Shown here one piece after another: positions 14,894 through 43,327 of a DNA stretch of 64,000 nucleotides. The translations under genes and the position numbers were made by a program. This DNA comes from Acutalibacteraceae bacterium (lineage in GTDB: Bacteria; Bacillota; Clostridia; Oscillospirales; Acutalibacteraceae): assembly GCA_045532945.1 (NCBI GenBank), contig JAZSGZ010000013.1:41900-105899 (forward strand), in the 5' to 3' direction. Under the pieces are notes generated by a model. The model saw nothing but the letters and a program-made list of their open reading frames with translations. It ran no database searches and was not told the DNA's origin. The number at the start of each line of letters is the position of its first letter. Within the stretch, counting starts at the first letter, position 1.

Positions 14894-16987
14894 TTACGAA
14901 ACCTTTATTGTAGCTAATTCTTTATCACACTCATCAATAACAAATTGTGGTATGGTATCATATTCTCTTGGATTTAGTTGCCACACATAATCGTTTCCAA
15001 CATGGTATGTTTCGTTTACAAATTTTTTAACAACAGCATTTGGACTGTTTTCGTTATGTATAACTCTATATATTTGTAACTTTTCATAATTACTTGAGGC
15101 AGCATTATAAAGTTCAAGCAAGAAATTAATGTCCATAACTTTTTTGTGCTCAATAAAATAATCAAACCCAGGAATTGATTCACGAACTAAAATTTGTGCA
15201 GATGAAAACTCTTCATCAGTCATCGGTCTATCTTCTAAACTATTCCTTACATGTGGATAAGGATCTCTGTGCAAAAGACATGATGTCATTTGCCATATTA
15301 AACCTTTTTCATCTTCCACTTCGTATAAACGTCGTAAATAAATTGTTTTTATTATGTTATCAATCTCTAAAGTAAGATTATTTTTTGCAATTTTTTGTAT
15401 AGTGCAAATATTATTACTTTTTATTTCCGTTTCTATTAGTTTTCCGTCCTTAGTTGAGAGGAAACTCGCTTTAGGTGCAGGATTAAATTCACGTTTTTTT
15501 ACTTTCATAACATCAATAACAGTATTAAATTCGTGCGTTAACAATAAGACACTGCGGTTTTTTAGAGAGTTTTGAGATAAAAACAATAAATTTATCAATG
15601 CGAATTTTTTATTTCCATCAAAAGATGATATTGGATCATCAAGTATAATTAAGTCAGTATTATCCTTCTGCACAGTAAAAGCAAATAATGCTAAGGCTAA
15701 TGCATTCTTTTCACCGTAACTTAGATGCCTATTTATCGTTGTTAGTTCCAAATCAACATTTGCAGGTTTTAATATCATCCTATAATCACGATTGGTCTCT
15801 TCGATTATGTCTACGATATAATTATAGCCAGCACCGCGCAAAAACTCATTTATTGTGGCTTTATTGGCTTCAATAGTTCGTGCAATTAAAATGTTTTGCT
15901 GATTCACTTCACCTTGTAGTTTGCTTGCTAATCCTATTACTGTTTTTAAAGAACTATTTATAATATTTATTTTTTCCTCTGTTTTATTAGAAAACAAAAA
16001 TGGGAAATATGACAAATCAATCAAGAAACCATTCAATTCATCTGCTATTTTATCAACACTTTTAAGAGAATTATAATTTATGTTCCTAAGTCGCAAAAGA
16101 TTATTTAATAAATCCTTTACTTGGTTTTTAACTCTAACAAGGTATTCTTTTTGTTGCGAACTAATTGAAGAAACATTGTCCCTTATTTCTTGTATTTTAG
16201 TTGCTGTTGATTCAGAAAAGTAGGGGATAAGTTTTTCTAATAAAACCAAGACAGAATTAAGGTGTTCGATATCTTTTGATTTGTACTCCTCTGTTATTTT
16301 TAAAATTGTGTCCTTAGTGGTTGAAATGCTTCCAGAACAATATGGGCATTGATCTTCCATTTCCAAAAAATCTTTACCTGTTAATTGCCATTTTAACCAA
16401 GAAACATTTTTTCCACCTTCGCTATGTCTTAAATATGTACTGAATTTTTCCAGACCAGAAGGAATATGTTTGAGTTTGTTTCCCTTACTAATGGCTTTTG
16501 ATATAACACTATTGCTTGCTAATGTATCTGATTTTCCAAAACCAGATACGAACTGAGAGAATGCATCAATAAGTTCATTTAATTCTGGATGAGATGTGAA
16601 AGCAGTTGATACTTCTTCAAGTAGTCTTTCTATTTCTTTCATATGCTCATCATATTTAGGCGTTTTTACAAATATTGAAAAACTATCTTCTATAAGTTCA
16701 TCTTCTTTAAAAATATGACGATTTATATATTCCTCATTAAAAATAGAAACAGAACGAATTCCTTCTAAGCCACTTACATTGGGTAATGAAGCAGATGAAT
16801 TGCCAATGTTTGAATAAGGAATTAATTCTTCTTTTAAATTGTCATCATTATTAACAAAGGCTTCAATAACCTTAGAAATAGTTGATTTACCGGTTCCATT
16901 AACACCATATTTGATGTTTAAACAACCTTCGGCAATTTCAACTTGTCCGTTAGTTATGTTATTACAGTTTGTGAAATTAAGTATCAT
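14894..16987 (-). CDS. AAA_13-type ABC/SMC-like ATPase with CxxC zinc-hook-like insert (RloC/PrrC-like candidate defence ATPase)
   Basis: Walker A GVNGTGKST. CPYC at about residue 214 in a predicted coiled-coil insert. ABC signature LSYGEKNAL. Walker B LIILDDPISSFD. C-terminal domain contains RRLYE...LLHRDPYPH. Confidence 0.65.
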   Translation of the reverse strand: MILNFTNCNNITNGQVEIAEGCLNIKYGVNGTGKSTISKVIEAFVNNDDNLKEELIPYSNIGNSSASLPNVSGLEGIRSVSIFNEEYINRHIFKEDELIEDSFSIFVKTPKYDEHMKEIERLLEEVSTAFTSHPELNELIDAFSQFVSGFGKSDTLASNSVISKAISKGNKLKHIPSGLEKFSTYLRHSEGGKNVSWLKWQLTGKDFLEMEDQCPYCSGSISTTKDTILKITEEYKSKDIEHLNSVLVLLEKLIPYFSESTATKIQEIRDNVSSISSQQKEYLVRVKNQVKDLLNNLLRLRNINYNSLKSVDKIADELNGFLIDLSYFPFLFSNKTEEKINIINSSLKTVIGLASKLQGEVNQQNILIARTIEANKATINEFLRGAGYNYIVDIIEETNRDYRMILKPANVDLELTTINRHLSYGEKNALALALFAFTVQKDNTDLIILDDPISSFDGNKKFALINLLFLSQNSLKNRSVLLLTHEFNTVIDVMKVKKREFNPAPKASFLSTKDGKLIETEIKSNNICTIQKIAKNNLTLEIDNIIKTIYLRRLYEVEDEKGLIWQMTSCLLHRDPYPHVRNSLEDRPMTDEEFSSAQILVRESIPGFDYFIEHKKVMDINFLLELYNAASSNYEKLQIYRVIHNENSPNAVVKKFVNETYHVGNDYVWQLNPREYDTIPQFVIDECDKELATIKVS

Positions 16988-17030: not shown

Positions 17031-17059
17031 TTTAAAGGATAACTATTTGTTATCTCTTA
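17031..17059 (+). repeat. 29-bp dyad-symmetric site, copy 1 (candidate tyrosine-recombinase core site)
   Basis: tttaaaggataactatttgttatctctta is the exact reverse complement of 20682-20710. Internal arms gataac / gttatc flank the asymmetric spacer tattt. Confidence 0.85.
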
Positions 17060-17074
17060 AAAGGGTTGAAAAAC

Positions 17075-18319
17075 ATGTATAATCAAAAAATAGAAAACGC
17101 AGTAAATTTAATTAACGATTTTTATACTTACCATGAGTGCACAATACCATTATGTGCTGCTGAAAATATAATTTCACCTTTTTGCAAAATACCTTTAAAT
17201 GGTAATTTCCAAGAAAGATATATTATGGGGGGGACAACACACTATGACATTAATAACAATTTTATAGGTAGTCAATATTTGTTACCAATCTACAAATCAA
17301 TTGAAGATTGTTGCAAGGAGTTGTTTAATGCAAATTATGTTGATGCAAAAACGCTATCAGGAATGAACTGTGTTACCACCTTATTAATGAGTTTAACTCA
17401 AATTGGTGATAAAATAGTATTGCTTGAAGAAGATGCAGGTGGACATCCATCTGTAATTGAAATATGCAAGAGGCTTGGTTTAAATATAATATATACACCT
17501 TTTGATTATGATAATTACACAATAGATTACCAACAATTAAATTCTCTTATCGCAAAAGAAAAGCCCAATTATTTGTGTTTAGCACCATCTGATATCATTA
17601 TCCCAGTTTCAATTGAAAAAATTGAATTAAGTCAAACGATATTGCTGTATGATGTCAGTCAACTTTTAGGTTTAATTGCCGGAAATATTATAGAAAACCC
17701 TTTAGAAATTAACCCAAACATAATAATATTTGGTGGTACACATAAGACCCTGCCAGGTCCTACTCACGGACTTATAATGACCAATTCTGTTAATTTAGCA
17801 GAGGTTCTTGAAGAAAGAGTTAGTCCTGAATTCATAAGGAACACTCAAATGAATCAAGTTTTAAGCCTTCTTTTCACATTAATTGAGTTTAATGATTTTG
17901 GAAAATCATATATGGAGAAAATAGTAACAGTGGCCAATGACCTCGGTAAATTGCTAGAAAAACGCTCTTTCAATGTAGCAAAAACTGAGGAGAAATATAG
18001 TAATACACACCAAGTATTTATTAAATGTTCAAAAGAGGAAATGAACACGATATACGATAACGCAATTTTAACAGGAGTTACCCTAAATAAGAAGGAACGC
18101 AAGTTATTCGGTGGTTACGGAATAAGACTTGGAGTACAAGAAATAGCCCGATATGGTTGGAATCATAACGATTTAGAAATCATTGCCGATATTCTATCTT
18201 TATTAAGAACGGAAAACTTTGATACAAAAGCATTTAAACAATTTTCAAGAAAATTATCTCCCAAATGCATAGATTTCACATATAAGGATTCTCTTGGAGA
18301 AATTTTACATCATAAATAA
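17075..18319 (+). CDS. divergent serine hydroxymethyltransferase-like PLP-dependent enzyme
   Basis: PLCAAENIISPF compares with SHMT ELIASENF. GGTHKTLPGPTHGLI compares with SHMT TTHKTLRGPRGG (PLP lysine). About 415 aa, as for GlyA, but otherwise highly diverged. Confidence 0.6.
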   Translation: MYNQKIENAVNLINDFYTYHECTIPLCAAENIISPFCKIPLNGNFQERYIMGGTTHYDINNNFIGSQYLLPIYKSIEDCCKELFNANYVDAKTLSGMNCVTTLLMSLTQIGDKIVLLEEDAGGHPSVIEICKRLGLNIIYTPFDYDNYTIDYQQLNSLIAKEKPNYLCLAPSDIIIPVSIEKIELSQTILLYDVSQLLGLIAGNIIENPLEINPNIIIFGGTHKTLPGPTHGLIMTNSVNLAEVLEERVSPEFIRNTQMNQVLSLLFTLIEFNDFGKSYMEKIVTVANDLGKLLEKRSFNVAKTEEKYSNTHQVFIKCSKEEMNTIYDNAILTGVTLNKKERKLFGGYGIRLGVQEIARYGWNHNDLEIIADILSLLRTENFDTKAFKQFSRKLSPKCIDFTYKDSLGEILHHK

Positions 18320-20649
18320 CTGTAGGCACAAAGGGTTAAATGTTTCTGCTTTAAAAGCAATTGCATTTTTTTCAAGACCATTATGCTCAAGATATGACAA
18401 CATTTCTTCGTCAATAGGCTCTCTTTTTAATATTGTTAAAATTAAATTGGCTAGCATTTCATTAATGGTTAAATTGTGTTCTCTGGAAATTTTAATGGTT
18501 TTAATCAAAAGATTAATTTGCTCATTTTTGCAATTGTTATATATAAATTTAATAGCATCATACTCAGTTAAGATAATTCCTATATAAGACATAGTTTCTA
18601 AGTTTTTATCGCCATTTTTGTGAGAAAAATCTATTGCCTTACAATAATTATCTATCGCTTTATTGTGTTCTTGCATAAAACGATAGTATTCTCCTAACTC
18701 AAAATACATTGTATATATTAATCTTTTTTTTAGTTTTTCGTATCCAAGGAAAGCTTGTTCTAGTTGACCTTTTGCTTGTGTAGGAATATTTCCAGGGGTA
18801 CTATTGGAAATAAGGTATCTTGTATGATTCCTATAATATAATAATTTCGCGGCATTATCATTGTTCTTATTAATTAGAGCAAGAGTTTCTGTAAACATCT
18901 CTTCCAAGTTTTGATATCTTGTTTCTTTAGCAAAAAGATGTGGGTTAGACATATAAATAATGGTTAATTCCAAGTTAATTGTAAGTATTAATTTGGAAGA
19001 GTTTAAACTATTCGCTATTTCTAAAGCTCTGAAATAATAAATAATCGCATCTGAATAACACCCTATGTGTCTAAATGAGTGTGCGATTTTCATATCTATT
19101 GTCATTTCGAAATTTCTATCACAATTACTGGTTCCATTGATTTTGGATAGTATTATTTGAAACCAATATATTGCAGTATCATACATGCTTTGTAAATGAA
19201 ATAAATCAGCTAATTGAATGGCTAAATCTAATTGACCCATTTCAACAGCATAAGATATTAATATCCCTTCATTATCAAAAAATCTTTTTGCCGTAGGATA
19301 ATCACCTACACTTAATAATGCTAATATAAACCCATGTGCTATTTTATAATACATGTCATCTTTTATATTTTGATTACCATCTCGAAAGTAATGATTCCCA
19401 AAAGATATCAAAAACATATATTGTTCTTTCTGTATTGACTCATCTATACATTTGATGATTAAATTTTTATATGATGACAGATCCCTTCTCTTTAATAAAA
19501 CAGAATAGATGGAACAACTTTGTATATTTTTTCCCTTTTCATAAAAAAACAACAACCTTTTAATATCTTCATAATAAGAGAATTGAACAATGTTGTAAGT
19601 TATGTAGTCTCTTATAATATCATGCATTTTGATTGTTTTTTTGAATTCATTATATTTTATAAGAGAATACGAATTTATTTTTTTTAAAACTCTCATATTT
19701 GTATTAATTCTATTATCAAAGTTTGTTAGGAATGATACTTCAATTTCGGTATTAACCAAACTTAACAGCGCAATGTAAACTATAACCAAAGCTAAATTTG
19801 AATCTTCTCTTTTTAGATCATAAAATATTTTATCAATGTATTCATTATAAAATTCTCTATTGCAATGATCATCGTTTGAAATCATTAAATCAACCATTAT
19901 TGGTAAACCATTAGAACCTTCACATATTTCCTTTAGTACTTCAGGAGAAAGTTTCTTTTGACATTTTTTCGCGTACTCGTCTATGTCATCTACTTTAAAC
20001 TCTATTATTTCTATCTTCGGTTTATCATTACCTGATTTTGGAAGTGATAGTTTTTCTATAGAACCTAAAACAAAAACAAATTTTAAAGAGTAAGGTTGTA
20101 CATTTTTAATTAAATCTTCCACTGCGTTTTCGGTACATTTATTTGTAATGTTATCTAAAACAATTATAATCTTTTTATAAAAAAAAGAAGTTCTTAACAT
20201 TGTCTTTATTGCATTGTCAAGATTTTTGCTTTTTCCATTAGACAATATTTCGACAAGTTTATTAGTTAAAATATCATCACCTTCAATATTATTTACTTCA
20301 TAATAAATAACTTTTGTTCTTAATCTATCTATATAACTATAAGTCTTCTTTAGTTTTTTTAGTTCGGAACTTTTAATGGATATTTTATTGTTGATAAAAT
20401 CAGATACATACTTTAGAAAATAAGTTTTTCCTACACCTTTTTCCCATACACATTTATTATCTTTTTATCAGATTTGATCATTTGTATAAGAGTGATAATT
20501 TGATAATTCCTATCCGTGAATTTCTCATGTTCTACAAGTTGTCTTTTAGTTGTTTTAACAATGAATTTGCTAATAATCCCCAAAATAGTCAATACAGAAA
20601 CAACGCATGCTAATATTTTATAAACTGTATCTATGGAATTGATTTGCAT
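18305..20649 (-). pseudogene. membrane-anchored STAND-like P-loop NTPase with C-terminal TPR array; frameshifted within the Walker A motif
   Basis: The 87-aa ORF (TM helix, ends ...INVYGKKV*) and the 646-aa ORF frame (open from 20464, reads GVGKTYFL...) join into GKKGVGKT if one base is added at the A5 run (T5 on + strand, 20438-20442). Walker B IIIVLDN. Multiple TPR-like repeats. Alternative starts at 20667 and 20694. Confidence 0.65.
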
Positions 20650-20681
20650 GTTACAACCCTCTTTCATAAAATCCAATACTG

Positions 20682-20710
20682 TAAGAGATAACAAATAGTT
20701 ATCCTTTAAA
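20682..20710 (-). repeat. 29-bp dyad-symmetric site, copy 2 (inverted)
   Basis: taagagataacaaatagttatcctttaaa, a perfect inverted copy of 17031-17059. Confidence 0.85.
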
Positions 20711-20780
20711 TTTTATTTATGTACACTCGACAAGACAAGGTTTTTCCGTCATAATTACATAAAAAACGGAGGTTTTGTCA

Positions 20781-21683
20781 GTGAGTTTACAATCTGAAAT
20801 TAACAACTATATTGCAGTTTGCGAAAATCTCAAAGGTTTAAGTAAACTGACAATAAAGGCATATAAGATTGATTTAAAACAATATCAAGATTATGCCAAT
20901 GATTTAGACTGGCTTTCTAAAGAGTGTATGACCACATACATCGACCATTTATATAAAGCTTACAGTCCTAAAAGTGCTAAAAGAAAAATAGCATGTCTAA
21001 AAGCATTTTATAGATATCTGGAAATGGAAGACATCATAGAATACAATCCATTTCACAAAATAAAAATCAAATATAAAGAACCAATTGTATTGCCAAAGAC
21101 CATTTCATTAAACGATATAAAGAATATATTGATTTTTTCGTATAATCAAAAAGAAAACAGTAAAACAGACATTCAAAAAGAAACAAGATTACGGGATGTA
21201 TTAATTTTAGAAATGTTATTTTCAACGGGAATGCGTGTATCTGAAATTTCACACTTATCTGTTGATGATATCAATTTGATTGACGGTACAATTCGTATAT
21301 TTGGTAAAGGGTCAAAGGAAAGAATAATGTGTCTTACAAATGAATCTGTTCTCGAACTCTTAAGTGAATATATAAACACTCAAAATAAAACATCAAGCTA
21401 TATGTTTACAAACCGTTTAGGAAACAGGTTGTCCGAACAGTCAATAAGAAACATGGTAAACCACTATGCCTGCGCAGCCGGTGTAACGCAACACATAACG
21501 CCTCATATGTTCCGTCACACCTTTGCCACGGCTCTGCATGATGAAGATGTAGATATTAGGTATATTCAACAACTGCTTGGCCACAGTTCAATTTCAACAA
21601 CCCAAATCTACACTCACATCAGTACAAACAAAATACATAAGCTTCTTGAAGAAAAACACCCAAGAAACAAAATATTAATTTGA
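20781..21683 (+). CDS. XerC/XerD-like tyrosine recombinase
   Basis: C-terminal catalytic region HMFRHTFATAL...LLGHSSISTTQIYTH (R-H-R-Y family). GTG 20781 lies 8 nt after GGAGG; the track start is TTG 20775. Confidence 0.85.
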   Translation: MSLQSEINNYIAVCENLKGLSKLTIKAYKIDLKQYQDYANDLDWLSKECMTTYIDHLYKAYSPKSAKRKIACLKAFYRYLEMEDIIEYNPFHKIKIKYKEPIVLPKTISLNDIKNILIFSYNQKENSKTDIQKETRLRDVLILEMLFSTGMRVSEISHLSVDDINLIDGTIRIFGKGSKERIMCLTNESVLELLSEYINTQNKTSSYMFTNRLGNRLSEQSIRNMVNHYACAAGVTQHITPHMFRHTFATALHDEDVDIRYIQQLLGHSSISTTQIYTHISTNKIHKLLEEKHPRNKILI

Positions 21684-21690
21684 TTTATGA

Positions 21691-21730
21691 ACCTTCTACA
21701 CAATTGTTGTGTGGAAGGTGTTTTTTCTTT
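21691..21730 (+). terminator. rho-independent terminator
   Basis: 12-bp stem accttctacaca / tgtgtggaaggt (one G-U pair) followed by a T-run. Confidence 0.75.
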
Positions 21731-21756
21731 TAAAGGATAATATTTAATTATCTATT
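21728..21756 (+). repeat. degenerate third copy of the dyad site (direct relative to copy 1)
   Basis: tttaaaggataatatttaattatctatta matches copy 1 at about 23/29 positions. The 16-mer ttcttttaaaggataa (21725-21740) is identical to 17027-17042. Confidence 0.6.
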
Positions 21757-21769
21757 AATGAGGTGCAAA

Positions 21770-24451
21770 ATGAAGGTATTAAAAATCAATTCTATCGGAG
21801 GGCTATATCACGAAATGTTTGAACCTGATCCTGAGTTCTTTTGCTCAAAAATCAATGTGTCGAACTGCTTTATTGATGCAAACTCATTTTTTTGGTCAAA
21901 ACATTTTTCTGTATCAAAAATTAATGAACTAATAGATGTGTTATCTTTTAATAAGTCTAACATTTATAGCTTTTGTCCTCAATATAAGGCTGTTTTATCC
22001 AATCGTGAGCTCTTTGTACAAAAAGTAGTTGAAGCACCTAAAAAACTGTGTTATGAAGCTAACACTCCCCAAGAGTTTTTTTCGTGTTTAGAAACTATTT
22101 CGATATTGTGTAAACTATATTCAGATTTTGAATATTTTCCTTTTAACCTAAACATACAAAATGGATTTAATTTAAATGAAAACAATTCATATGAAATTTA
22201 TAACAATTGCCTTAATCCTAAAAAAAATCCATACTATAATTTTGTTGTTGAAGAAATAATCCCTATAATTAAAGAAAATAATCCAGATATATTATTCCTT
22301 TATGGTCAAATGAGTTATTATTTTGCAACTTTATCTTTATTAATTAAGCAATTTAATCCACAAATTCATATTTGTTTATCAAGGCACTCATCGGAATACT
22401 ATTCGATGAACAAAATCATTCCACTTTTAAAGCAAAACAAATATCTTTTCAAAATAATTGACAGTATTATTCTTGACTCATTCGAAGAAACAGAAGGAAA
22501 ATTAATTTCCTCATTGAAGAACAATGAACGCATTGATTGTGTTCCTAATATTTTATTTATCAATGACAGCAAAGAAATAATTGAGACTAACTTCTCTGAA
22601 CCTTGTTTCACAAATGATTATTCAATTTATAAAAGGATGCATAACGAAAAAAACACCAACAAGAAAGTTTATGATATTCATTTTGATCCATATATAAAAT
22701 GTCATTGGGATAAGTGTTCATTTTGTGGTATTAACAAAAAATACCGTAATAGAGATTTGTGTTATTCTGAACAAACTTTCAATAGAAAAGCTACTAGTCT
22801 TAATTTGTTGTCTCAAGAATGCGACTATTTGTGGTTTATAGATGAAGCGTTATCACCAGACAAGTTGAGAAATATAGCTGTTAGTTTTATTAATGCAAAA
22901 ACTGGTTTTAAATGGCAAGCTAGATGTCGAGCGGATTATGGTTTGCTTGAGAATGGTTTGCTTGAGAATGGTCTGCCAGAATTACTAGCTAAATCTGGAT
23001 TAAGAGAACTTCGCATAGGATTAGAATCCGGCTCTTATAAGGTACTTAAACTCATGAATAAATTTGATGAAAATTTTAATTTGAGTTTAATAGAATCTAT
23101 TGTTTCGACATACGAAAAAAATGGAATATCTATACACTGTCCTATGATAATAGGATTCCCACAAGAAGAAGATATCGACCGTCAGTATACTTATGAGTTT
23201 TTGTTAAAGCTTTCAAAGAGCCATCCTTCATTTACATTCAATTTAAATATTCTAAATTTAGATGTAAGTAGTGAACTATATAAAAATTGGGCAAATTATC
23301 AACTTGATAAATTGGAGTATCCTTGTGAGCCACAATATTTTTTGGGAAATTCGATTGCGTGGATTGATAGCCTTAAACATAACAAATTATCAATAGATGT
23401 AAATAATTTTATGCGAGAGGTACTTTTTCCATGGATACCTGCTGATTCCTTAATATCGCCTACTATATTTTATCGGTTATGCGAAACCAGTAGAAACACC
23501 CTTCGATGGAAATCTATAGGTACTTGGTATAAAAGCAAACAATTATTTTCTTCAGATATGAATTTAACATTATCGAATAAAGTTTCGATTAGTCAAAGCG
23601 AAGATAGAGTGTTTTTTTATCAATGGAACTCACATCACTATTTACATGGAAACACCTATCTTTATAATTTGCTTGTTGAATTCAAAATAAGCTCTAAGGT
23701 TTCAAAAGTAATTAATAAATTAAATGGTCTTGATCCTAACGTGTATGTAAAAGAAGAGTTAATTTCATTAATAAACAAATTGTTTGAGTTCGGTTTTTTA
23801 GAAGGAGAGTATATTTTTAGTGATTTAAAAAATCTTGGTGATATAGAAAAGGCATATGACTCTATATATCAAGAGGGAAACCTTATATATAAAATTGAAC
23901 CAGATAGATTATTAATAGATTGGCAAAATATTCTCGTTCCAGGTCAAGCTTTAGAATTAGGTGTAGGCTTGGGAAAAAACATAGATTTTCTTTTAGATAA
24001 AGGTTTTTCTGTAACTGGTGTGGATATTTCATCCGTAGCTATAGAAAAGCTAAATAAAAAGTACCATAGCTCCAATTGTTCTTTTTTTGTAAACAATATA
24101 AATACTTTTGAAATTCCTCGTGAAAAATATTCATTAATTATATGTTCTTTAGTTTTATCATATCTAAACGATACTGAACTCATTCTTTTATCTAATAAGA
24201 TTAAAAATGGTTTGTGTAAAGGAGGATTCTTTTATCTAACTGATTTGTCAGAAAGAGATCCTCTTTCTATAAAGCCAAACAATCAAACAACCGATCATAG
24301 GAATTTTTTTAGTTGTTCAAAAATTCAAAGTTTATTTAAAGAATTGGATATCATTGAGTTGAGCGATGTTTATAGAAAAAATCCGCATAGGATTGGCTGT
24401 GAAAATGCTTTTGGACTTATTAACTATTTAGGTTATAAACCCAAGTCATAA
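21770..24451 (+). CDS. fusion protein: B12-binding-like N-domain, radical SAM core and class I SAM-dependent methyltransferase
   Basis: Cys triad KCHWDKCSFCG has Cx4Cx2C spacing, confirmed from codons at about 22699-22728. C-terminal motif I LELGVGLGKN and LIICSLVLSYL indicate a Rossmann methyltransferase. ATG 21770 follows GAGGTG. Confidence 0.6.
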   Translation: MKVLKINSIGGLYHEMFEPDPEFFCSKINVSNCFIDANSFFWSKHFSVSKINELIDVLSFNKSNIYSFCPQYKAVLSNRELFVQKVVEAPKKLCYEANTPQEFFSCLETISILCKLYSDFEYFPFNLNIQNGFNLNENNSYEIYNNCLNPKKNPYYNFVVEEIIPIIKENNPDILFLYGQMSYYFATLSLLIKQFNPQIHICLSRHSSEYYSMNKIIPLLKQNKYLFKIIDSIILDSFEETEGKLISSLKNNERIDCVPNILFINDSKEIIETNFSEPCFTNDYSIYKRMHNEKNTNKKVYDIHFDPYIKCHWDKCSFCGINKKYRNRDLCYSEQTFNRKATSLNLLSQECDYLWFIDEALSPDKLRNIAVSFINAKTGFKWQARCRADYGLLENGLLENGLPELLAKSGLRELRIGLESGSYKVLKLMNKFDENFNLSLIESIVSTYEKNGISIHCPMIIGFPQEEDIDRQYTYEFLLKLSKSHPSFTFNLNILNLDVSSELYKNWANYQLDKLEYPCEPQYFLGNSIAWIDSLKHNKLSIDVNNFMREVLFPWIPADSLISPTIFYRLCETSRNTLRWKSIGTWYKSKQLFSSDMNLTLSNKVSISQSEDRVFFYQWNSHHYLHGNTYLYNLLVEFKISSKVSKVINKLNGLDPNVYVKEELISLINKLFEFGFLEGEYIFSDLKNLGDIEKAYDSIYQEGNLIYKIEPDRLLIDWQNILVPGQALELGVGLGKNIDFLLDKGFSVTGVDISSVAIEKLNKKYHSSNCSFFVNNINTFEIPREKYSLIICSLVLSYLNDTELILLSNKIKNGLCKGGFFYLTDLSERDPLSIKPNNQTTDHRNFFSCSKIQSLFKELDIIELSDVYRKNPHRIGCENAFGLINYLGYKPKS

Positions 24452-24464
24452 GGAGGTGAATTAA

Positions 24465-24626
24465 ATGAAAAAAGTTGGAATAGAAGTGGAGTTTGATGGA
24501 AAAGCTATAAACTTGACTTCTAAAGACTCCGCCTCTGTTATTGTTGCAACTCCTGCAACTGGCGGTGGCGGTGGCGGAAATAGCGGTGGCGGAAATAACG
24601 GCACCAACAACGGTGGTGGGAAATAA
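24465..24626 (+). CDS. 53-aa Gly/Asn-rich peptide, candidate RiPP precursor (not in ORF track)
   Basis: AGGAGG at 24451-24456, ATG at 24465. Sequence MKKVGIEVEFDGKAINLTSKDSASVIVATPATGGGGGGNSGGGNNGTNNGGGK, stop TAA 24624-24626. Lies 13 nt after the rSAM/MT stop. Confidence 0.6.
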   Translation: MKKVGIEVEFDGKAINLTSKDSASVIVATPATGGGGGGNSGGGNNGTNNGGGK

Positions 24627-24646
24627 CACTACCTACCCAAAACTCA

Positions 24647-24677
24647 GGGTGAAAAGGATTATTAAACCTTTTCACCC
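24647..24677. terminator. bidirectional terminator hairpin between convergent genes
   Basis: 11-bp stem gggtgaaaagg / ccttttcaccc. Overlaps the 3' end of the pentapeptide-repeat gene. Confidence 0.65.
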
Positions 24678-26284
24678 GATGAATCGTCATCATTTTCTTC
24701 AACTATTTCAATATAATATTCGCGTAATGGCAATGATTCCTCGTCAGGACTATTTAATTCAATTTTAATGGATTTAATGTTTTCTTTGATTATTGATGGA
24801 ACTAAGAGTTTCTTTTTGGGTTGTTCCTCAAGTTGCTTTTTGCGTTCTTCTAATTTTAAAATTGACATTTCAGTTTCTATCTGTTTACTTTTAATTTTTT
24901 CTTGTAATAAAGCGTTTTCAAGATGTGCTTTTTTTACATTAGCATCTTGTAAAACTTTTTCCGTTCTCGCTGATTGATATTCTTTGTAGACCGTTAAAAG
25001 ATGTTTAACAAATTTTATTGCAGTAGTTGAATAAGCACAAAATTGAATGAAATCTATTATGTATTCATATAGATTAAAAACGGAATCGCTTAAAAAGAAT
25101 TCAAACAACGGAGGTGAATTATGTCTAACACTAAAGTAATAGTTGCTTTGAGGCAAAACTTGTTTGACTGTTGTTTCAAATAATTCTATAAAACATATCC
25201 AACTATTATAATCCTCAGAATTAAAATTTGTATGACAAGTTATTGTCATTTGAGGCATTGAAAAAGGATTATCAATAAGTAATTTTTTGATTTCTAAAAC
25301 TTCATGTAGGTATATCTGATATTCATGATTATTCATTTCCGCTATGTGACTGTTAAATATGATTGCATTATATAATTTTTTTAAGTTTTCTTTTGTAAAG
25401 AAGTAATTTATAGAAGATAATTTGCAAAGATAACGTATGGTTCTAAAGTCTCTTTCTTTAAGAGCTTTATCTAATCCCATAAGAATATAAACCAATGCTT
25501 TTTCTTGATGTCCAAGAAATATATTTATATTAGCAAGTGCAAAAAATTCTTCTTTTTTATATAAATATGGTTGTATAGGTATGAGCAAATCAAAAAATTC
25601 ATTAACTTGAATTTCTTTGCCGGCTGCAGCATATTTTATTGTTACGTTCATGTTATCCTTTAACTCTAGTAACAATCCAAAGGATTTTAAAATTCCCCAA
25701 AAAGGCAAAACAACTCCATTAAATATAGGACTTACAAATGTTGAATATTCCAAATTCCCATGAATTAAATCGCATTGTTCAAAAACACAATTTTTAAACT
25801 GTGCATTTTCAAACGAGCAATGAGCAAATTCTGAACAAACAAATTTGCTTCCTACAAAATAGCCTTCATCAAAAACACTTGCATTAGCAAGAAAATGATT
25901 AAATTCAACGCCTGAAAAGTTTGATTTGTTACATCCACAATTATCAAAAAAACACATGTTTAAAAATTTAGAGTTTGAAAAATCACTACTTGTCATTCCT
26001 GAATCCTTAAAACGAGTTTCATTAAATGTACAGTTAATGATCTTTGAAGAAATACCATTTATTCCATCAAAGTGAACTTTGTTAAATACACTATTATAAA
26101 ATTGAGGTTGCTTAACACACTGACCTTGATAATCTGCTCCAATCACGGAGTCCGCAATATATGCAGATACATAATCATTACCTGAAAAATTACTAGGGTC
26201 TAGACTCTTCATTATATTTTCAGCGTTAATGTATTCAATTTGAGAAAAACCCTCATTGCTATTGAAGAAATCTAAATTACTCAT
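24662..26284 (-). CDS. pentapeptide-repeat protein with helical/coiled-coil C-terminal region and acidic tail
   Basis: Residues about 60-190 are tandem pentapeptides (FNKVHFDGINGISSKIINCTFNETRFKDSGMTSSDFSNSKFLN...FENAQFKNCVFEQCDL). The C-terminus has a KQ/E-rich coiled coil and EENDDDSSGEKV. Confidence 0.75.
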   Translation of the reverse strand: MSNLDFFNSNEGFSQIEYINAENIMKSLDPSNFSGNDYVSAYIADSVIGADYQGQCVKQPQFYNSVFNKVHFDGINGISSKIINCTFNETRFKDSGMTSSDFSNSKFLNMCFFDNCGCNKSNFSGVEFNHFLANASVFDEGYFVGSKFVCSEFAHCSFENAQFKNCVFEQCDLIHGNLEYSTFVSPIFNGVVLPFWGILKSFGLLLELKDNMNVTIKYAAAGKEIQVNEFFDLLIPIQPYLYKKEEFFALANINIFLGHQEKALVYILMGLDKALKERDFRTIRYLCKLSSINYFFTKENLKKLYNAIIFNSHIAEMNNHEYQIYLHEVLEIKKLLIDNPFSMPQMTITCHTNFNSEDYNSWICFIELFETTVKQVLPQSNYYFSVRHNSPPLFEFFLSDSVFNLYEYIIDFIQFCAYSTTAIKFVKHLLTVYKEYQSARTEKVLQDANVKKAHLENALLQEKIKSKQIETEMSILKLEERKKQLEEQPKKKLLVPSIIKENIKSIKIELNSPDEESLPLREYYIEIVEENDDDSSGEKV

Positions 26285-26331
26285 AAAACCTCCATGATAA
26301 TTAAATATTATCCTTTATTTGTTTTTAATTT

Positions 26332-27108
26332 TTACTTATATAGTTTTTCATCGATTAATAATTCACTTTTAAGATCATCATAATTACCGTACAATGATTC
26401 TATTGTGTTGTTATAATACTTTGCGTACCAAATATATTTACTATAAATATTATCCCTGTCTTTTGTTTCTATTAGATTTTTAATAATTGAAGATTTAATT
26501 TCGTTAAGATAATATGGATATTCTTCTGGAACATCTAATTCTTCATGCTGAGATAAAAAATCTAAATATATTTGTTTATCTTCTTCATCTTGTTTTAATA
26601 AACTTCTTAGATATTCTGCTTCTTCTTCACATGTATTAGCATATCCGGGTGATTTTAATCCATTGGCAATAGCTATAGTATCCACAATAATTCTAGGCGT
26701 GATGGCATGATTTTGCTCCATTTCATATGCAGTAATCATAGCAGGACCAAAACAAACATTTCTCTTGTGATACAATAAACCAAAAGTTACGCCACCACGA
26801 ACAAAAATCCCATTAATATTAAGTTGCAAACAAATAAATACTAAATCCATTAACAAGAAAAATAGTCCACCTCTGGTGTCACCAGGATATGATATAACTA
26901 TGCTATCAGAAAATACAGAAACTTCCTTTTTGGTTGTATCATATTGAGCAAGAAAACCATGATAATTTTCATTCCTAACTTCTGATATATAATTCAAAGC
27001 ATTGCTTATAGTTTCAAAATCGCTATTATCTTGTGTTGTTTTTTGCACTAAATCTTTAAACCCTAAAATATCTAAAAATACAATAAATCTATTTTCGTAA
27101 GACTTCAT
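26332..27108 (-). CDS. class III nucleotidyl-cyclase-like protein (stand-alone)
   Basis: Four motifs match the cyclase homology domain: FIVFLDILGFKDLV (FADIVGFT), VFSDSIVISY (IGDAxM), VRGGVTFGLLY (RIGIHTG) and FGPAMITAYEME (GxxVNxAARLE). ATG 27108 follows GGAG; the track N-terminal extension runs into the promoter repeat. Confidence 0.45.
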   Translation of the reverse strand: MKSYENRFIVFLDILGFKDLVQKTTQDNSDFETISNALNYISEVRNENYHGFLAQYDTTKKEVSVFSDSIVISYPGDTRGGLFFLLMDLVFICLQLNINGIFVRGGVTFGLLYHKRNVCFGPAMITAYEMEQNHAITPRIIVDTIAIANGLKSPGYANTCEEEAEYLRSLLKQDEEDKQIYLDFLSQHEELDVPEEYPYYLNEIKSSIIKNLIETKDRDNIYSKYIWYAKYYNNTIESLYGNYDDLKSELLIDEKLYK

Positions 27109-27159
27109 TTCAAATATCTCCTTAAAATTAATACTTACATCAGTGAAGATGTGCAAAAT

Positions 27160-27262
27160 TGTTCTACTTATATATGACAAATTTCGCGAAATACTTCAAA
27201 AAATTTTTGTGATTTTTATCTTTTCTACTTTTTGCACAAAATGATGTTGCGAAAATTGTCGA
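27160..27262 (-). promoter_or_regulatory. conserved promoter-like element, copy A
   Basis: In gene orientation: TTTTGTGCAAAAAGTAGAAA box, A/T tract, TTGAAGTATTT, then GTCATATATAA. Homologous to 28582-28690 and 44965-45044. Confidence 0.6.
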
Positions 27263-27279
27263 AAATTGCTATGTATCAG

Positions 27280-28533
27280 TTAAACTAAAACTGGTTCGGT
27301 GTCTCTTGGTGTGAAATCAACAATTTGTTCAGCAGACTCAAGTTGTGTTATGTTATCCAAATAACTAACGGCGTTAAACATGTTAACAATCCCGTACTTA
27401 ACCGGAATATCAGCAGTTTCACAAGAATTATATAGAATCTGCTTTATTTGTTCATTGTTTAAATTGGGGTATTGAGTTTTTATCATTGCACAAACAGAGG
27501 TTACAAACGGTGCAGCACAGGAGGTTCCTGTAAACTCAACATAATCTCCATCGGCATACGTGGATGGTAGTTTTAGGTTTTCTCCCGGTGCGGCTACTTT
27601 TACCCAGTCACCGAAAGCTGCCTTTTTGTATAATTTCTCTGATTGATTAATTGCAGTAACAGATATAACACCATCACAAGCAGCAGGGTACTGCGGTTGT
27701 GTGCTTTTTACGTTACCTACAGATGCAATGTGTAATGGTTTTGATATCCCGCTATTGAATTTAGCAAACATACCATAACTGCTATTTATAAAATCTACGC
27801 CATCAAGTTCCGCTTGCATTTCAGCCAAATGCAAAATGGATAGCGTTGTTTCATTATCAGTGAAAATTTTATATGATATAAACTTCACATTGGGGAGAGT
27901 GTTTTCCATCAGAACGCTACAGACCCTTGCTCCGTGTCCTGTACTGGACGTAAAAGGACTTTCAGGTTCTTCTGTAAAACAATGTGCTTCTAAAAGTCGA
28001 TGAGCAAAGTCCTCATTTCCCGTTTCAACACCGTCATCGATTATACCTACTACAACATCAGGTAAATCATCAAGGCTTTTGTTTTTCAATATGTATTCAA
28101 ACGCTTCCTTACTTTTGGTGCGTTCATATCCCCAAGAGTGCTGAATTTCAGCTCTGTGAAGTGAAAGTTTAGATGTGTCAGATGAGTGTGTTTTTTCCAG
28201 TTCAATTACAATATCAGGTACAACAAGTTTTATATTAGGATTTTTGGTGTATTTGGTGAAAGCTGAGAAGGCATCAAGGGGAGTAGCATACTGCAAAATG
28301 TGCATATCACCATAGCCTGAAATATGGTCTATTGCTCCATATTTATCAAAAGCTACATCAGCGTAAACAATTAATCGTTTTGATGTGAAATGCTTTTGGA
28401 TAGAATCTTTTTTGTCATTGTTATTGTTGAAACTATAGTAGTTTATAAATTGTAAAACTTCTTTTGAAAAACCTTTTAATTCAGAAGAATGGGGAGTAGT
28501 ATTCTGAAAATTGTTGTTTGCATTTTGAATCAT
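27280..28533 (-). CDS. subtilisin-like S8 serine peptidase without a signal peptide
   Basis: Catalytic triad contexts VVGIIDDGV (Asp), STGHGARVCS (His) and GTSCAAPFVTS (Ser). I9-like prodomain. No N-terminal hydrophobic signal. Confidence 0.8.
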   Translation of the reverse strand: MIQNANNNFQNTTPHSSELKGFSKEVLQFINYYSFNNNNDKKDSIQKHFTSKRLIVYADVAFDKYGAIDHISGYGDMHILQYATPLDAFSAFTKYTKNPNIKLVVPDIVIELEKTHSSDTSKLSLHRAEIQHSWGYERTKSKEAFEYILKNKSLDDLPDVVVGIIDDGVETGNEDFAHRLLEAHCFTEEPESPFTSSTGHGARVCSVLMENTLPNVKFISYKIFTDNETTLSILHLAEMQAELDGVDFINSSYGMFAKFNSGISKPLHIASVGNVKSTQPQYPAACDGVISVTAINQSEKLYKKAAFGDWVKVAAPGENLKLPSTYADGDYVEFTGTSCAAPFVTSVCAMIKTQYPNLNNEQIKQILYNSCETADIPVKYGIVNMFNAVSYLDNITQLESAEQIVDFTPRDTEPVLV

Positions 28534-29321: not shown

Positions 29322-32300
29322 TTAACCTGCTAAAACCAAGTTCACAACCTGAGCATAATCTTCAACAGTTATTTCTTGGTCCAAGTTTGTATCTGCTGCA
29401 AGGAAATATTCATCCTCTAATGTTGCTAAATTATTAGCAACCAAAGCTACGACAGATGCATCTATAACATCTACTGCGCTATCGCCATCAACGTCACCTT
29501 CAACAATTAGTGTGTAATGTTCTCGATTAGACATATTGTAAATAACAAATTCAGAACCAGTACCATACCAAGAATATTCTTTATATACTAAAGACGGCAA
29601 AGAAGAATAGCTTGTGTTTTCTTGAATTCCAATGATATTAAAGAAATCCTTACAACCTGTTGTTTTGGTGTAAATTAAATTATTATCAAAATCAATGTGT
29701 GTATTGGGAAGGGAAACCATATAATAAAGCCTATTCTGACACATAGAACTTTTAATTATAACTTGACTAACAATATTACCATCAATATCTTTATCCGTAC
29801 TTGTCATAATACAATAATAATAAGGGTATGATTTGTAATCATCAGGATTAAATGTTTTATCTGTTGCATTTGTTATAGGTTTGTCATCATAGTTACCTTG
29901 AATTTTATCCTTTGAACCGTACCATTGATAAGTTCTATTAAATCCTCTTGCATCAAATTCAAGTGGCTCGTATGAATACTTATCCCAAATGGGCTCAATA
30001 TCCTCAACAACGGCAGTTTCTTGCGATATGTTTATAAACTCAATATCATTTTTCTCTGCCCATTGTTCTGCATAGCTATTTACACCTGATGTACCATAGA
30101 CTACGTATTCGATATACTCATTTTTGTAGTCTTTAGCAGGGACACAGTGTTTAAGGGTTGAGGGAAAGATTAAATCTACACTAACAGGTTGATAATACGA
30201 ACTATACCAACATTTACCACCACTTAAAGTATCTGGTAAATCATAAATGTATTCAACGTTAGATAGCAAAACTGTTTTGATGGGACTTGCCTCAAAAAAA
30301 GCAGACCCAATACTTGTGATTTTCGGTAAATCAATTACACTGAGCTTGGAACATTTATTGAACATATTGCGAGTGGATTCGGGATTATCTACTGTGAGAA
30401 TTTCATCAACCAAATCATATTTATCTAAAAAATCCGCTTTGGGAGCATACATAACCCTTAGATATGTGTTGAAAGCAAATGCATCGTTACCTATGCTTTC
30501 ACATTCAGGTAAATATATTTCTCGCACCTTTGCAACATTGTAAAAGGCCTCATTACCAACCTTTTTAACTTTAGGAAATACTGCTCCCAAAAAACTCGAT
30601 TGATAAAATCCAGCCTGCATTATTTCCTCGCAGTTTGGAAATTGTACCTCATATAGATTTGGTAAAAACGAAACGCCATAATAACCAATGGTTTTAATCC
30701 CGTTACCAATTATAAAATCCAAGGTCTCATTTTCATTAAATGCTCCATACTGCTCATCAAGTGTCATAGGGCGTTCATACCTGTCTAACGTATCTCCTAG
30801 AACCTCAACTGTATCAGGAAGAATAACACCATATAACTCTGCTTTATAAAATCCGCTATCCCATGAAATTTCTTTTACTGTTATTCCGTTTATTACTTCA
30901 GGGATTTTAAGATATTTGACATTGCCTGTATATCCCGTTAAAACCCCTTTTTCGTTTACCGTGAACATATCATCAGTACCTAAAACCAATGAACAAAACT
31001 TACCAAAAACATAATTACTTTTATTGCCGTCTTTATAAGCAACAGCACGTATTTTTGCTGAATCATCATATAGTGTAATTGGTTCGGTATATAAAAATCC
31101 ATTTGTGGGCGATGGATATGAATAGTCGGTTGTATAATATATATTTGAACCTGATTCGGCTGAAAGCTCTAATGTGATTTCACCAACATATTTACCCGGT
31201 TCGATACTGAATTGAGGTGCGGATAATGAATCTAAACCAAATAATTTTAAAGGATTTACAATACCGCTACCGAAAAAGTTGGTAACGTATTCTTCATCAG
31301 TTCCCGAACCGCAATTTATCACGGCTCGGATTCGTTCTTCAAAAGAACATTTTTGATTAACGCTCAAATACATTGCATATACACTTACCATAAATGGTGA
31401 AGAAAAAGATGTTCCAGCACTTGAGGTAATTTTATTATTCAAGGAGATTAAACTCATATCAGTACCAGGGGCCATTATGTCTATGTGTTTTCCGAAGTTA
31501 GTAAAATTTGCGGGCGCATTATATTTAGTGCTTGCACCAACACTAAAAATATATTCAGAGGATGTTAAAGGCGAGCCTGCAGTGAACTGAACATCGCTAC
31601 CCTCATTTCCAGCACTTGTAAAAACAGCGCAATACGAGGACCATGCATATTCAAGCGTTTCATCAAGTAGTTTAAAGCTAGGGGAGGAACCTAAACTAAT
31701 ATTTATCACATTAGCTCCATTACTAATTGCCTGAAGAATAGCTGCACACAAGAGAGTGTAACTTTCTATTGCACCATACCTGTTTACACAACGATAGTTT
31801 GCTATTTTAACATTTGGAGTTGTACAGTTAGCAATGAGGCTTGTTACCTTTGTTCCATGTCCTTGATAATCTTGTTCAGAATTCTCATCACCATCACCGG
31901 CATTATTAAAACCTGTCGGTATTAATCTGTCTTGTAAATATTTGCAATTTAAATCCACCCCAGTGTCGACAACAGCTACAATGACTTTTGGTAAGTTTTG
32001 GTTTTTATATTTTTCCAAAACCAAATCCATCCCCGTTGCTTCCAAATACCAATCATTTTTATAATTCTCGTAGGTTAATTCGGTACTGTTGGTAGTTTCT
32101 TCTGTTGTTAAAGCGACAGCATTGTAGGAAAAGTCATACTCAACAGAAATGATATCCGGATTATTTTTATATTGCTCATAGGCGTAGTTTATATCTTCTT
32201 CACTTTTAAACTGTAAAATATAGAAATCAAAAAAACCACTTACTACATCAACTGCATTATATGTATCAATAGGCTTATCAGACTGAACGATAAGACGAGG

Positions 32301-32531: not shown

Positions 32532-32597
32532 TTGTTACTCCCTCTTTCGGTTTAAATTACTCAGTTGCGTATAATTGAATAACTATATAATAGGTCA

Positions 32598-39327: not shown

Positions 39328-39329
39328 TC

Positions 39330-40037
39330 TTACATCCCTCTTTCTGCATACAAGAACATTTTTGTTCTGAATTCTTTTTGTTTTTTAGGAGCGATTGATA
39401 TATCTGTTGTTTTTTCGTCATATTCCAAAACGAGAGAAGTGCGATTAAAGCTTTTAATGAAATTAAAGTTAACAATAAAGCTTGTGTGAGGTGAATAGAA
39501 ATTAACTTCATTTAATTTTTCTTTCCAAAACTCAATCTTTTCTTTAGAAACATATTCACCATCAGTTGTGATGATACGAGTTTTTCGTTTGTATATTTCG
39601 CAATATACTATTGTGTTAGTTGATATAATTGCAGAATTATTATCGGCACATATGATTTTTATTTCTTTGTTTGAGATTGAAAGTAGTGCCGCATCTAATG
39701 AACGATACAAACGAATTATATCCAATGGCTTTTGTAAAAATCTATATGCACCTATTTCAAAAGCATCATCAAGATAATCAGAGTAAGCAGTAACCATAAA
39801 TATAATTATATTGTTGAATTTTTGTTTAAGCTTTTTACCAATTTCAACACCACTTATAGAAGGCATTTCTACATCAAGAAACGCCATATCAAAGCATATA
39901 TCACTATCAAGAAGCTCGTTGCCATCTTCATATGAGTAAATTTCGGTGCTTATCGTTTTGTCATTGAAATAGTTAACCAATGCATTTTCAACATCTTTTA
40001 TAATTTTCTTATCATCGTCACAAATCGCAATTTTCAC
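39330..40037 (-). CDS. agrA: LytTR-family response regulator (AgrA-like)
   Basis: Receiver domain KIAICDDD...FLDVEMP, plus a C-terminal LytTR domain. GTG 40037 follows GGAGGG. Confidence 0.8.
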   Translation of the reverse strand: MKIAICDDDKKIIKDVENALVNYFNDKTISTEIYSYEDGNELLDSDICFDMAFLDVEMPSISGVEIGKKLKQKFNNIIIFMVTAYSDYLDDAFEIGAYRFLQKPLDIIRLYRSLDAALLSISNKEIKIICADNNSAIISTNTIVYCEIYKRKTRIITTDGEYVSKEKIEFWKEKLNEVNFYSPHTSFIVNFNFIKSFNRTSLVLEYDEKTTDISIAPKKQKEFRTKMFLYAERGM

Positions 40038-40121
40038 AATTACCCTCCAAAAAATAAATGCCGTAAACATTATTTTAAGTTTACGGCATTAAAAATAGTT
40101 TGTCAAATGTTATTTGGAGTA

Positions 40122-43264: not shown

Positions 43265-43327
43265 TGCTGGATATATAAATGTTGTTGTGATAGTGTTGTG
43301 TCGAAATCAAGTAAAGGTGGTGCACTA

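Follow-up and report, generated by a model that had tools for sequence, protein, structure and literature searches.

In Mycoplasma and Bacteroides, alternative genes are known to be brought behind a fixed promoter by site-specific inversion, and expression-site switching by this mechanism occurs in Mycoplasma at the vpma locus with Xer1 and at the vsa locus with HvsR. The locus described here would share with these two an XerC/D-like recombinase, a recombination site in the 5' untranslated region (UTR), a fixed promoter outside the inverting DNA, and silent complete genes that are moved behind that promoter. It lies in a stretch of 64,000 nucleotides (hereafter, the window) from an Acutalibacteraceae bacterium (assembly GCA_045532945.1, contig JAZSGZ010000013.1, positions 41,900 to 105,899); unnamed coordinates below are window positions. 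Between positions 17031 and 20710, two inverted repeats enclose two convergent genes, one for a serine hydroxymethyltransferase (SHMT)-like pyridoxal phosphate (PLP) enzyme and the other for a transmembrane (TM)-anchored STAND NTPase with a TPR array. We consider this segment, with a probability of about 0.7, to be a programmed invertible switch with two states, in which either the STAND sensor or the SHMT-like enzyme is expressed.

The gene for the SHMT-like enzyme (17075-18319, plus strand; open reading frame (ORF) 17066/17075-18319) is intact, encodes 414 amino acids, and begins with an ATG at 17075 that is preceded by an AAGGG ribosome-binding site. The NTPase gene (18305-20648, minus strand) would encode 781 amino acids if repaired but is split here into ORFs 18305-20245 and 20431-20694. 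The two genes converge, and their 3' ends overlap by exactly 15 nt (18305-18319), just as the preliminary description of this DNA had it. Site A (17031-17059), with the core GGATAAC-TATTT-GTTATC, lies in the 5' UTR and ends 15 nt before the SHMT-like ATG; site B (20682-20710) is 33 nt upstream of the NTPase ATG, and the two sites match at 29 of 29 positions as a perfect inverted repeat. The core motif RATAAY-N5-RTTATY, scored on both strands where palindromic, was found at four sites in the window (A to D) and nowhere else in it, against 0.45 expected by chance from shuffles, and every site separates outside DNA from the ribosome-binding site of the gene that it faces. The gene for an XerC/D-like tyrosine recombinase (20775-21683, plus strand) stands 64 nt from site B; its product matched Pfam Phage_integrase (E 2e-43) and scored ~245 bits, under the cut-offs, against the NCBIfam XerD/XerC-like models. 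It is presumed to be the invertase both for this cassette (cassette 1) and for a second one, bounded by sites C and D, on its other side. A sigma-70-type promoter, TTGTCT-17-TAAAAT (20710-20738, minus strand), was predicted by consensus scan only, with a score of 9/12; it abuts site B and reads into the cassette, and it is the proposed ON flank of cassette 1. In the window orientation, the STAND gene faces this predicted promoter, and the enzyme gene is predicted to be OFF.

That the two genes are the payload of an invertible cassette, initially only a suggestion, was borne out by homologous cassettes found in inverted form (loci and contigs carry L numbers, proteins P numbers). When L001 and L003 were compared by BLAST, the 4.96-kb cassette was 99.96% identical and collinear, both flanks (97-99% identical) were reversed, and the matching segments overlapped only in a 17-bp core, GATAATCCAATATTATC. 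BLAST revealed the same inversion pattern between L002 and L005, and between L009 and L011 the cassette is flipped between hsdM and the recombinase gene, as judged by gene order only. Five contigs (L016, L019, L060, L079, and L098) end exactly at both repeats, as is expected of an assembler when the reads hold both orientations, and two of them are from isolates (L019 from Neglectibacter sp. X58 and L060 from Paenibacillus taichungensis DSM 19942). The metagenome contig L008, of 3681 nt, likewise begins and ends exactly at the repeats, spanning window positions 17031-20710. Among the best 120 of the 636 enzyme homologues in the protein collection, the longest contig was 3.5-3.9 kb (the two-gene cassette) or 4.5-5.4 kb (a three-gene form) in 48 cases.

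The repeats could instead be operators, or the terminal repeats of a small mobile element, with the different orientations representing independent insertions. The palindromic core is indeed found upstream of four genes, and the same cassette together with 58 nt of its promoter flank occurs in different contexts (L001 versus L002). In addition, the module 17031-26317, comprising cassette 1, the recombinase gene, and cassette 2, is 99.5-99.9% identical to that of a related metagenome-assembled genome (MAG; L007/L093), whereas the flanks are 86-96% identical; this difference suggests that the module may recently have been exchanged between strains. On the left, identity changes at site A, and on the right, the two are still identical at least 165 nt beyond site D. 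However, L001 and L003 share both flanks at 97-99%, with only the inter-repeat segment reversed, single-isolate assemblies break exactly at both repeats, and a tyrosine recombinase gene is adjacent in most loci. Independent insertion was therefore judged very improbable, and repeats that are operators were rejected because the inversion breakpoints lie within the core.

The association of the two genes is widespread. A scan using one genome per species recovered 77 loci of the enzyme family among 185,579 species genomes (patterns were used in the search, and the loci were classed by local hidden Markov model (HMM) searches); the family was always in cassettes or in glycan clusters. A solo enzyme of ~415 amino acids with a convergent STAND gene was present at 20 of the 77 loci, and at one further locus, L029, which is interrupted by a contig end, the recombinase gene is present but no STAND gene can be read. 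Among the 20 loci whose STAND gene is readable, 18 show a 3' overlap of 11-27 nt, and no terminator lies between the genes. A homologue of the tyrosine recombinase adjoins most cassette loci. In 19 of the 22 loci that were examined, RATAAY-N5-RTTATY cores stand on either side of the cassette; the phyla represented are Bacillota, Bacteroidota, Ignavibacteriota, and Acidobacteriota. The locus of P0009 (68% identity) has a convergent STAND/TPR gene with an 11-nt overlap, an adjacent tyrosine recombinase gene, and Type I restriction-modification (R-M) genes on the other side; that of P0022 (51% identity) has a convergent STAND/TPR gene with a 15-nt overlap and an extra amidohydrolase gene upstream. 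The latter is of the three-gene type, in which a gene for a PhnM-like amidohydrolase precedes and overlaps the enzyme gene (L001, 6830-8008; L019, 59-1264) and its product scores 377.7 bits against NF011990, over the cut-off of 233. Starting from the STAND side, the pair was again recovered: P0128 and P0202 are paired with the enzyme, and opposite P0157 lies a partial ORF that is convergent and overlaps it. A STAND protein with a GT4 domain in place of the TM helix, P0148 (L097, 3343-9178), also has a convergent SHMT-like gene, an adjacent tyrosine recombinase gene, and the same type of repeat; another, P0143 (L095), occupies a 4-kb contig by itself, where there is a single upstream site but an SHMT-like gene is absent.

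Such tight pairing, across phyla and across variants of the STAND N terminus, is what a two-component defense would also show. The preliminary description had taken the enzyme to be the partner or effector of the STAND protein; in that arrangement, the STAND protein would sense, the SHMT-like enzyme would be its effector or obligate partner, the two would be co-expressed, and inversion would be incidental or would turn the whole system on and off. The STAND protein also diverges faster than the enzyme (53% versus 70% identity in one comparison and 31% versus 51% in another), as expected of a sensor. The layout of the locus argues otherwise. The genes are convergent and overlap at their 3' ends with no terminator between them, the sites stand between outside DNA and each ribosome-binding site, and no promoter is evident inside the cassette. 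The start codon of most loci follows the site by no more than ~60 nt, and the ribosome-binding site is often part of the repeat; in L077, the repeat takes in the start codon itself. Sites so placed in the 5' UTRs leave no room for promoters of the genes' own, and transcription must therefore enter from outside.

The predicted flanks are, moreover, asymmetric. In P0022-type cassettes, TGATATAAT lies ~6 nt from the repeat and faces the STAND gene in L001/L002 and the enzyme operon in L003/L005, whereas the opposite flank has a hairpin and T-run abutting the repeat (-14 kcal/mol in L001/L003 and -13.3 in L005). L072 has TTGACT-17-TAAAAT at one side and a GC-rich hairpin at the other, and in L009, promoter-like hexamers occur toward the recombinase gene and a hairpin toward hsdM. 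Promoters were predicted at the position analogous to the site B flank in L001/L002/L003/L005, L072, L031, and L090. Convergent overlapping genes, sites in 5' UTRs, and asymmetric flanks together predict alternate, and not joint, expression, and a two-component defense, in which the enzyme serves the STAND protein, was consequently judged unlikely. In the switch that we propose instead, the XerC/D-like tyrosine recombinase would recombine the two inverted RATAAY-N5-RTTATY sites in the 5' UTRs of the convergent genes. One flank would carry a promoter abutting its site, and the other a terminator or simply no promoter, such that the unit would read promoter, site, sense gene, antisense of the other gene, site, and terminator. 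In one orientation, the membrane-anchored STAND/TPR NTPase would be made, and in the other, the SHMT-like enzyme, together with the PhnM-like hydrolase in the three-gene version; in either, transcription of the ON gene would continue across the OFF gene in the antisense direction.

Of this model, the two genes and their repeats, natural inversion at the repeats, the STAND fold, and the conserved pairing are observed, whereas the working of the promoters and terminators, mutually exclusive expression, the identity of the invertase, and a part in defense are inferred. Several observations weigh against such a switch. Promoters and terminators were predicted from consensus sequences, and across the window as a whole, the promoter scan showed no enrichment over shuffles; the left flank of cassette 1 is 43 nt long and has no clear promoter or terminator. 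In L031, L050, and L090, the cassette directly follows the recombinase gene with no terminator between them, and the "OFF" gene may be weakly transcribed there. No recombinase gene was found within 8 kb of the cassettes in L001/L003/L006. The case for inversion of cassette 1 in this species comes from a repeat-bounded contig, together with the inversion of homologous cassettes and of cassette 2. No Avs or other defense model in PADLOC v2.0.0 matched the repaired STAND protein, its C-terminal fragment, or the GT4 variant. Finally, the strict co-inheritance of two unrelated genes would also be predicted by a functional partnership, and a purely alternate model does not explain why the enzyme is always the same one.

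The product of the minus-strand gene is, as was first thought, a membrane-anchored STAND/TPR NTPase. In the AlphaFold model of a STAND homologue of 53% identity (predicted local distance difference test score, pLDDT, 85; predicted template modeling score, pTM, 0.81), a long N-terminal helix (residues 2-32) forms the hydrophobic anchor and is followed by an alpha/beta NOD, then helical domains and a TPR solenoid, with the all-helical repeat region at residues ~360-770. Foldseek against the PDB ranked the Pyrococcus STAND-TPR protein 6mfv at the top (E 1e-11), followed by Avs3, CED-4, Apaf-1, and the plant NLRs NRC2/3. A search of PDB sequences with the STAND profile returned TPR proteins only, and the STAND relatives gave weak Pfam matches to ATPase_2, AAA_22, and NB-ARC. 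Of the two window fragments, ORF 18305-20245 (646 amino acids, minus strand) has the motif IIIVLDN and scores above the Pfam cut-offs for TPR_12 and TPR_1. Word-indexed searches for STAND homologues, with a single sequence or a 22-sequence profile, gave only 14-15 matches because TPR words swamp the candidates; an exhaustive profile search of representatives was therefore needed, and this yielded 94 STAND representatives at E <= 1e-30, almost all of 730-830 amino acids and with full-length matches.

Among these representatives, the N-terminal TM helix is replaced by a GT4-conflict glycosyltransferase domain in three and by PRTase-CE in one. Since a TM helix, GT4, or PRTase can fill the N-terminal slot while the pairing with the enzyme persists, the STAND N terminus would behave as a swappable output module of a self-contained sensor, the enzyme partner remaining constant. 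The preliminary description saw no recognizable effector domain in the protein and looked to the enzyme; the effector slot would rather be the STAND protein's own N terminus, a TM helix here and GT4-conflict in close relatives that are still paired with the enzyme, and this too counts against a two-component defense. GT4-STAND fusions are interpreted as counter-invader effectors in PMC8195603. Most probably, the STAND arm is a conflict sensor of NLR/Avs-like type that is complete in itself, and by its sequence, it appears to be Avs-like in design while outside the catalogued Avs families; in PADLOC v2.0.0, the STAND homologue P0122 obtained a weak TPR match only.

The Walker A motif GKKGVGKT, read in the preliminary description as part of the window protein, is intact in relatives but requires repair of the frame in the window. 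A homopolymer in its codons (20438-20442, minus strand; A5 on the coding strand) is one base short, causing a frameshift, and is the lone gap relative to L008; one more A in the run GGGAAAAAGG would restore GKKGVGKT and fuse both NTPase frames. L008, which is 99.84% identical, has T6 where the window has T5 at 20438-20442 and encodes an intact 781 amino acid protein from MQINS, and the related MAG contig L093 translates through an intact GKKGVGKT. The window NTPase gene is therefore either truly frameshifted by mutation or affected by a homopolymer sequencing error. The upstream ORF 20431-20694 (minus strand) encodes 87 amino acids and terminates ...VYGKKV*; the true NTPase start is probably the ATG at 20648 and not the TTG at 20694. 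The shortened STAND product of the window (P0121) was looked up and is not on record. With the STAND gene at the ON flank frameshifted and an intact enzyme gene facing a flank without a recognizable promoter, the locus as sequenced may express neither functional product. Loss of the STAND gene in the ON position would fit a fitness cost of the sensor, but the gap may instead be a homopolymer sequencing error.

The enzyme shows the SHMT hallmarks attributed to it at the outset, in the form CAAENIISPF and GGTHKTLPGP, and matches Pfam SHMT (PF00464) with E 3e-17 and 62.7 bits (cut-off 27). It would thus belong to the SHMT superfamily but not to the GlyA subfamily, and the view that it is not a housekeeping GlyA also finds support: in addition to its accessory, mobile setting, its score against the NCBIfam SHMT subfamily (NF000586) is 159.5 bits, under the cut-off of 335, and approximately equal to the 151.9 bits, also under the cut-off, that it obtains against the NCBIfam fluorothreonine transaldolase model. 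The nearest solved structures are Methanocaldococcus jannaschii SHMT (E 1e-56), then 7k34, which was deposited as a threonine aldolase (E 1e-39), and then bacterial GlyA (~1e-30). That the family is so rare (77 of 185,579 species genomes with the patterns used) and its setting mobile makes it less likely that this gene is the sole glyA of the organism, as far as can be told from the genomes scanned.

A residue map was drawn against Escherichia coli GlyA; in the GlyA sequence used, 11 landmark residues fall at their published numbers, which supports its accuracy. The family retains the PLP core, that is, the Schiff-base Lys of T-H-K-T, the Asp to the pyridine N, the stacking His, and the carboxylate Arg: K224, D193, H124, and R351 do not vary among 25 family members and correspond to GlyA K229, D200, H126, and R363. 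The residues at GlyA Y55, H126, D200, H228, K229, and R363 are identical in the family. In contrast, E57 is replaced by Met (M51), Y65 by Phe (F63), and N347 by Lys (K340), each invariant or nearly so; H203 is replaced by an invariant Gln and R235 by Ala or Thr. In mutants of the Bacillus stearothermophilus and E. coli enzymes, E57, Y65, and N347 are reportedly needed for the folate-dependent reaction and not for folate-independent aldol cleavage. As the equivalents of these three residues are replaced, an aldolase or transaldolase type is likelier than a one-carbon enzyme. The label "folate/one-carbon-type" applied in the preliminary description is thus doubtful. The protein is most likely a folate-independent enzyme of aldolase or transaldolase type, a putative relative of enzymes from surface-glycan clusters.

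Those relatives account for much of the family. At ~45 of the 77 loci, the SHMT-like domain is fused to a sugar-1-phosphate nucleotidyltransferase-like domain, and these fusion loci sit in polysaccharide clusters beside LicD, GT2 glycosyltransferases, and flippases. The fusions are ~770-810 amino acids long with the nucleotidyltransferase-like part N-terminal (L018, 6939-9245; L039; and others), and they look like an uncharacterized step in surface-glycan decoration. In a neighbor-joining tree (midpoint-rooted, no outgroup), the glycan-cluster forms make up one clade, and the cassette forms are the deeper and more diverse remainder. A phosphonate theme, comprising the PhnM-like hydrolase and a weak PhpK-like radical-SAM match in cassette 2, was kept only as a lead.

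Inversion switches classically control surface structures, and the cassette might accordingly govern a phase-variable surface or metabolic trait, the enzyme making or altering a glycan building block, the STAND protein acting as a membrane signaling ATPase, and the outcome being surface heterogeneity. The glycan-cluster fusions, with their LicD, GT2, and flippase neighbors, speak for this, as do those STAND relatives that carry a glycosyltransferase domain. On the other hand, the cassette loci are without the nucleotidyltransferase, LicD, and glycosyltransferases of the glycan clusters, their neighbors are defense and toxin-antitoxin genes and not glycan genes, and the GT4-STAND fusions have, as noted above, been interpreted as counter-invader effectors. 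We regard a surface trait as improbable. The same glycan clusters, where the enzyme's nearest relatives occur without STAND, also detract from a two-component defense.

PADLOC, run on 101 flanking ORFs of 14 cassette loci, found Nhi, AbiO, DolA+DolB, GajA+GajB, PD-T4-6, dGTPase, MADS components, and SoFic; elsewhere, Type I R-M genes (L009) and SIR2-HerA (L004) stand beside cassettes, and PemK/HicB toxin-antitoxin-type genes are found beside others. For the SHMT-like enzyme and the PhnM-like protein themselves, PADLOC gave no match. The context is a defense-island signature and supports, by association, a conflict role for at least the STAND arm. Defense-rich surroundings would suit a two-component defense as well.

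The second cassette (21731-26317) lies immediately beyond the recombinase gene. A strong intrinsic terminator (21691-21719, plus strand; 13-bp stem and T-run, -18.2 kcal/mol) between the recombinase gene and site C is the proposed OFF flank. Site C (21731-21752), GGATAAT-ATTTA-ATTATC, matches site D (26296-26317) at 22 of 22 positions; because the 5-nt spacers differ (TATTT versus ATTTA), recombination of A/B with C/D appears unlikely. The plus-strand gene 21758-24451 encodes a fusion of a B12/radical-SAM-like domain with a SAM methyltransferase (Pfam Methyltransf_25, weak Radical_SAM), with a weak NCBIfam match to the PhpK-family radical-SAM methyltransferase. The opposing gene, 24662-26284 (minus strand), encodes a 540 amino acid pentapeptide-repeat protein (Pfam pentapeptide families) and is predicted ON, being directly downstream of a gene for 282 amino acids (26332-27180, minus strand). 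Site D is at the end of the cassette, between the stop codon of that upstream gene and the GGAGG ribosome-binding site of the pentapeptide gene. The 282 amino acid protein has the motifs FLDILGF and FSDSIV and gave no Pfam, NCBIfam, or PADLOC match; its gene may form one operon with the codirectional upstream gene for an S8 subtilase (27280-28533). Transcription of the 282 amino acid gene would, on the predicted arrangement, read through site D into whichever cassette 2 gene faces it. Cassette 2 is inverted in MAG GCA_045606645.1 (L093) relative to the window, with breakpoints within the 22-bp repeat and one of them at site C, and the Logan contig L094 (4572 nt) covers it from repeat to repeat. 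For a Hailong-like reading of the 282 amino acid and pentapeptide genes, there was a weak, sub-threshold HalA match on the pentapeptide repeat region and none for the 282 amino acid protein.

We offer one extension of the either/or switch more tentatively, and hold it less likely to be right than wrong: that these cassettes belong to widespread, horizontally mobile, Xer-flipped gene toggles, in which two unrelated convergent genes move between a promoter flank and a terminator flank and of which the sensor/PLP enzyme pair, with its mutually exclusive states, is the commonest version, and that the enzyme state is not a passive OFF but a second protective or compensating state with a different mechanism, e.g., altered nucleotide-sugar or surface chemistry. 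If so, an active enzyme state would account for the constant choice of this enzyme as the alternative, and cassette 2, with its radical-SAM/methyltransferase opposed to a pentapeptide-repeat protein, would be a further enzyme-or-sensor toggle.

Both cassettes are in the very AT-rich island that the preliminary description recognized: GC is 0.26-0.31 over 14-27 kb, against 0.32-0.39 upstream and ~0.39-0.45 at the window end. The AT-rich region is cargo inside a conjugative or integrative element that has genes for a MobL relaxase, a VirD4 coupling protein, and a Toprim protein, as well as one for a large serine recombinase (43298-44914); a DNA similarity search against plasmids gave no match. 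A divergent gene adjoining site A (14894-16987) encodes a 697 amino acid AAA_13/ABC-type ATPase with a full-length PADLOC match to the candidate defense family PDC-S06 (797.7 bits). Two very large AT-rich cargo genes lie within 29322-37856, one for a 1069 amino acid S8 subtilase with LRR_5, Fn3-associated, and dockerin domains and the other for a 1752 amino acid protein without a Pfam match. Farther right, the region 45079-51604 has what would be additional defense-type cargo: an FRG-domain protein (45079-45945) that matches PDC-S15, a radical-SAM protein (45987-48275) with a viperin-like match, and a DUF4325 protein (50348-51604) with a partial DrmA-like match. An agr-like quorum-sensing set (AgrB, HATPase_c_5 kinase, and LytTR response regulator) is at 38038-41409, and such a set recurs near SHMT/STAND cassettes in L002 and in two to three of 14 other cassette loci; the recurrence may reflect a functional link, or the set may be cargo that mobile elements share.

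Sensors of the STAND/NLR type carry a cost and a tendency toward autoimmunity, and a reversible either/or switch would, if correct, be a population-level hedge against the cost of the sensor. It would also extend beyond Mycoplasma and Bacteroides the natural cases in which whole genes are exchanged behind a fixed promoter, and the strict pairing with one enzyme family raises the question of what an SHMT-fold enzyme does exactly when the sensor is off. There are practical consequences. Cassettes of this type break assemblies at their repeats, leaving thousands of orphan contigs of 3.7 kb and 5 kb, and operon-based defense searches would be misled, reading the pair as a two-gene system. The conserved core site of 17-19 bp and the small recombinase could be developed into a compact genetic-toggle tool.

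No description of the cassette was found in the literature searched on SHMT/STAND/TPR, inverton, and phase-variation pairings, and the locus may be set beside four groups of known systems. It resembles the gene-altering programmed inversions of Type I R-M hsdS shufflons and the epigenetic invertons (surveyed in PMC9881135) in its inverted repeats, adjacent recombinase, intra-species orientation variants, and defense-island context, and one homologous cassette is directly beside an hsdS shufflon. However, hsdS shufflons swap parts of one coding sequence, whereas here whole genes are swapped relative to the promoter and the coding sequences are untouched. A term search of that survey found no mention of SHMT, and TPR proteins only in an enrichment table. 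With the Avs/NLR-like STAND sensors and the STAND conflict systems of Kaur et al. (PMC7159879, PMC8195603), it shares an N-terminal output module, a STAND NOD, and a C-terminal TPR sensor; it differs in having no PADLOC Avs match, a single-TM N terminus, and a place in an invertible cassette opposite an SHMT-like gene. By term searches in PMC7159879, PMC8195603, and PMC13581612, neither an invertible cassette nor an opposing SHMT-like gene was found in those texts. GlyA and the L-threonine transaldolases (ObiH, LipK, and fluorothreonine transaldolase) share with the enzyme the fold-type I PLP signature and the PLP core, but the enzyme is under both curated cut-offs, has E57, Y65, H203, and N347 replaced, and is accessory and mobile. 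Lastly, in the Mycoplasma vpma and vsa loci, the alternatives are paralogous surface lipoproteins that serve antigenic variation, whereas here they are an unrelated STAND sensor and PLP enzyme, arranged as one compact convergent pair with a predicted terminator at the silent flank and spread over several phyla. The mechanism class is thus a known one, but the content of the cassette and its strict pairing are new.

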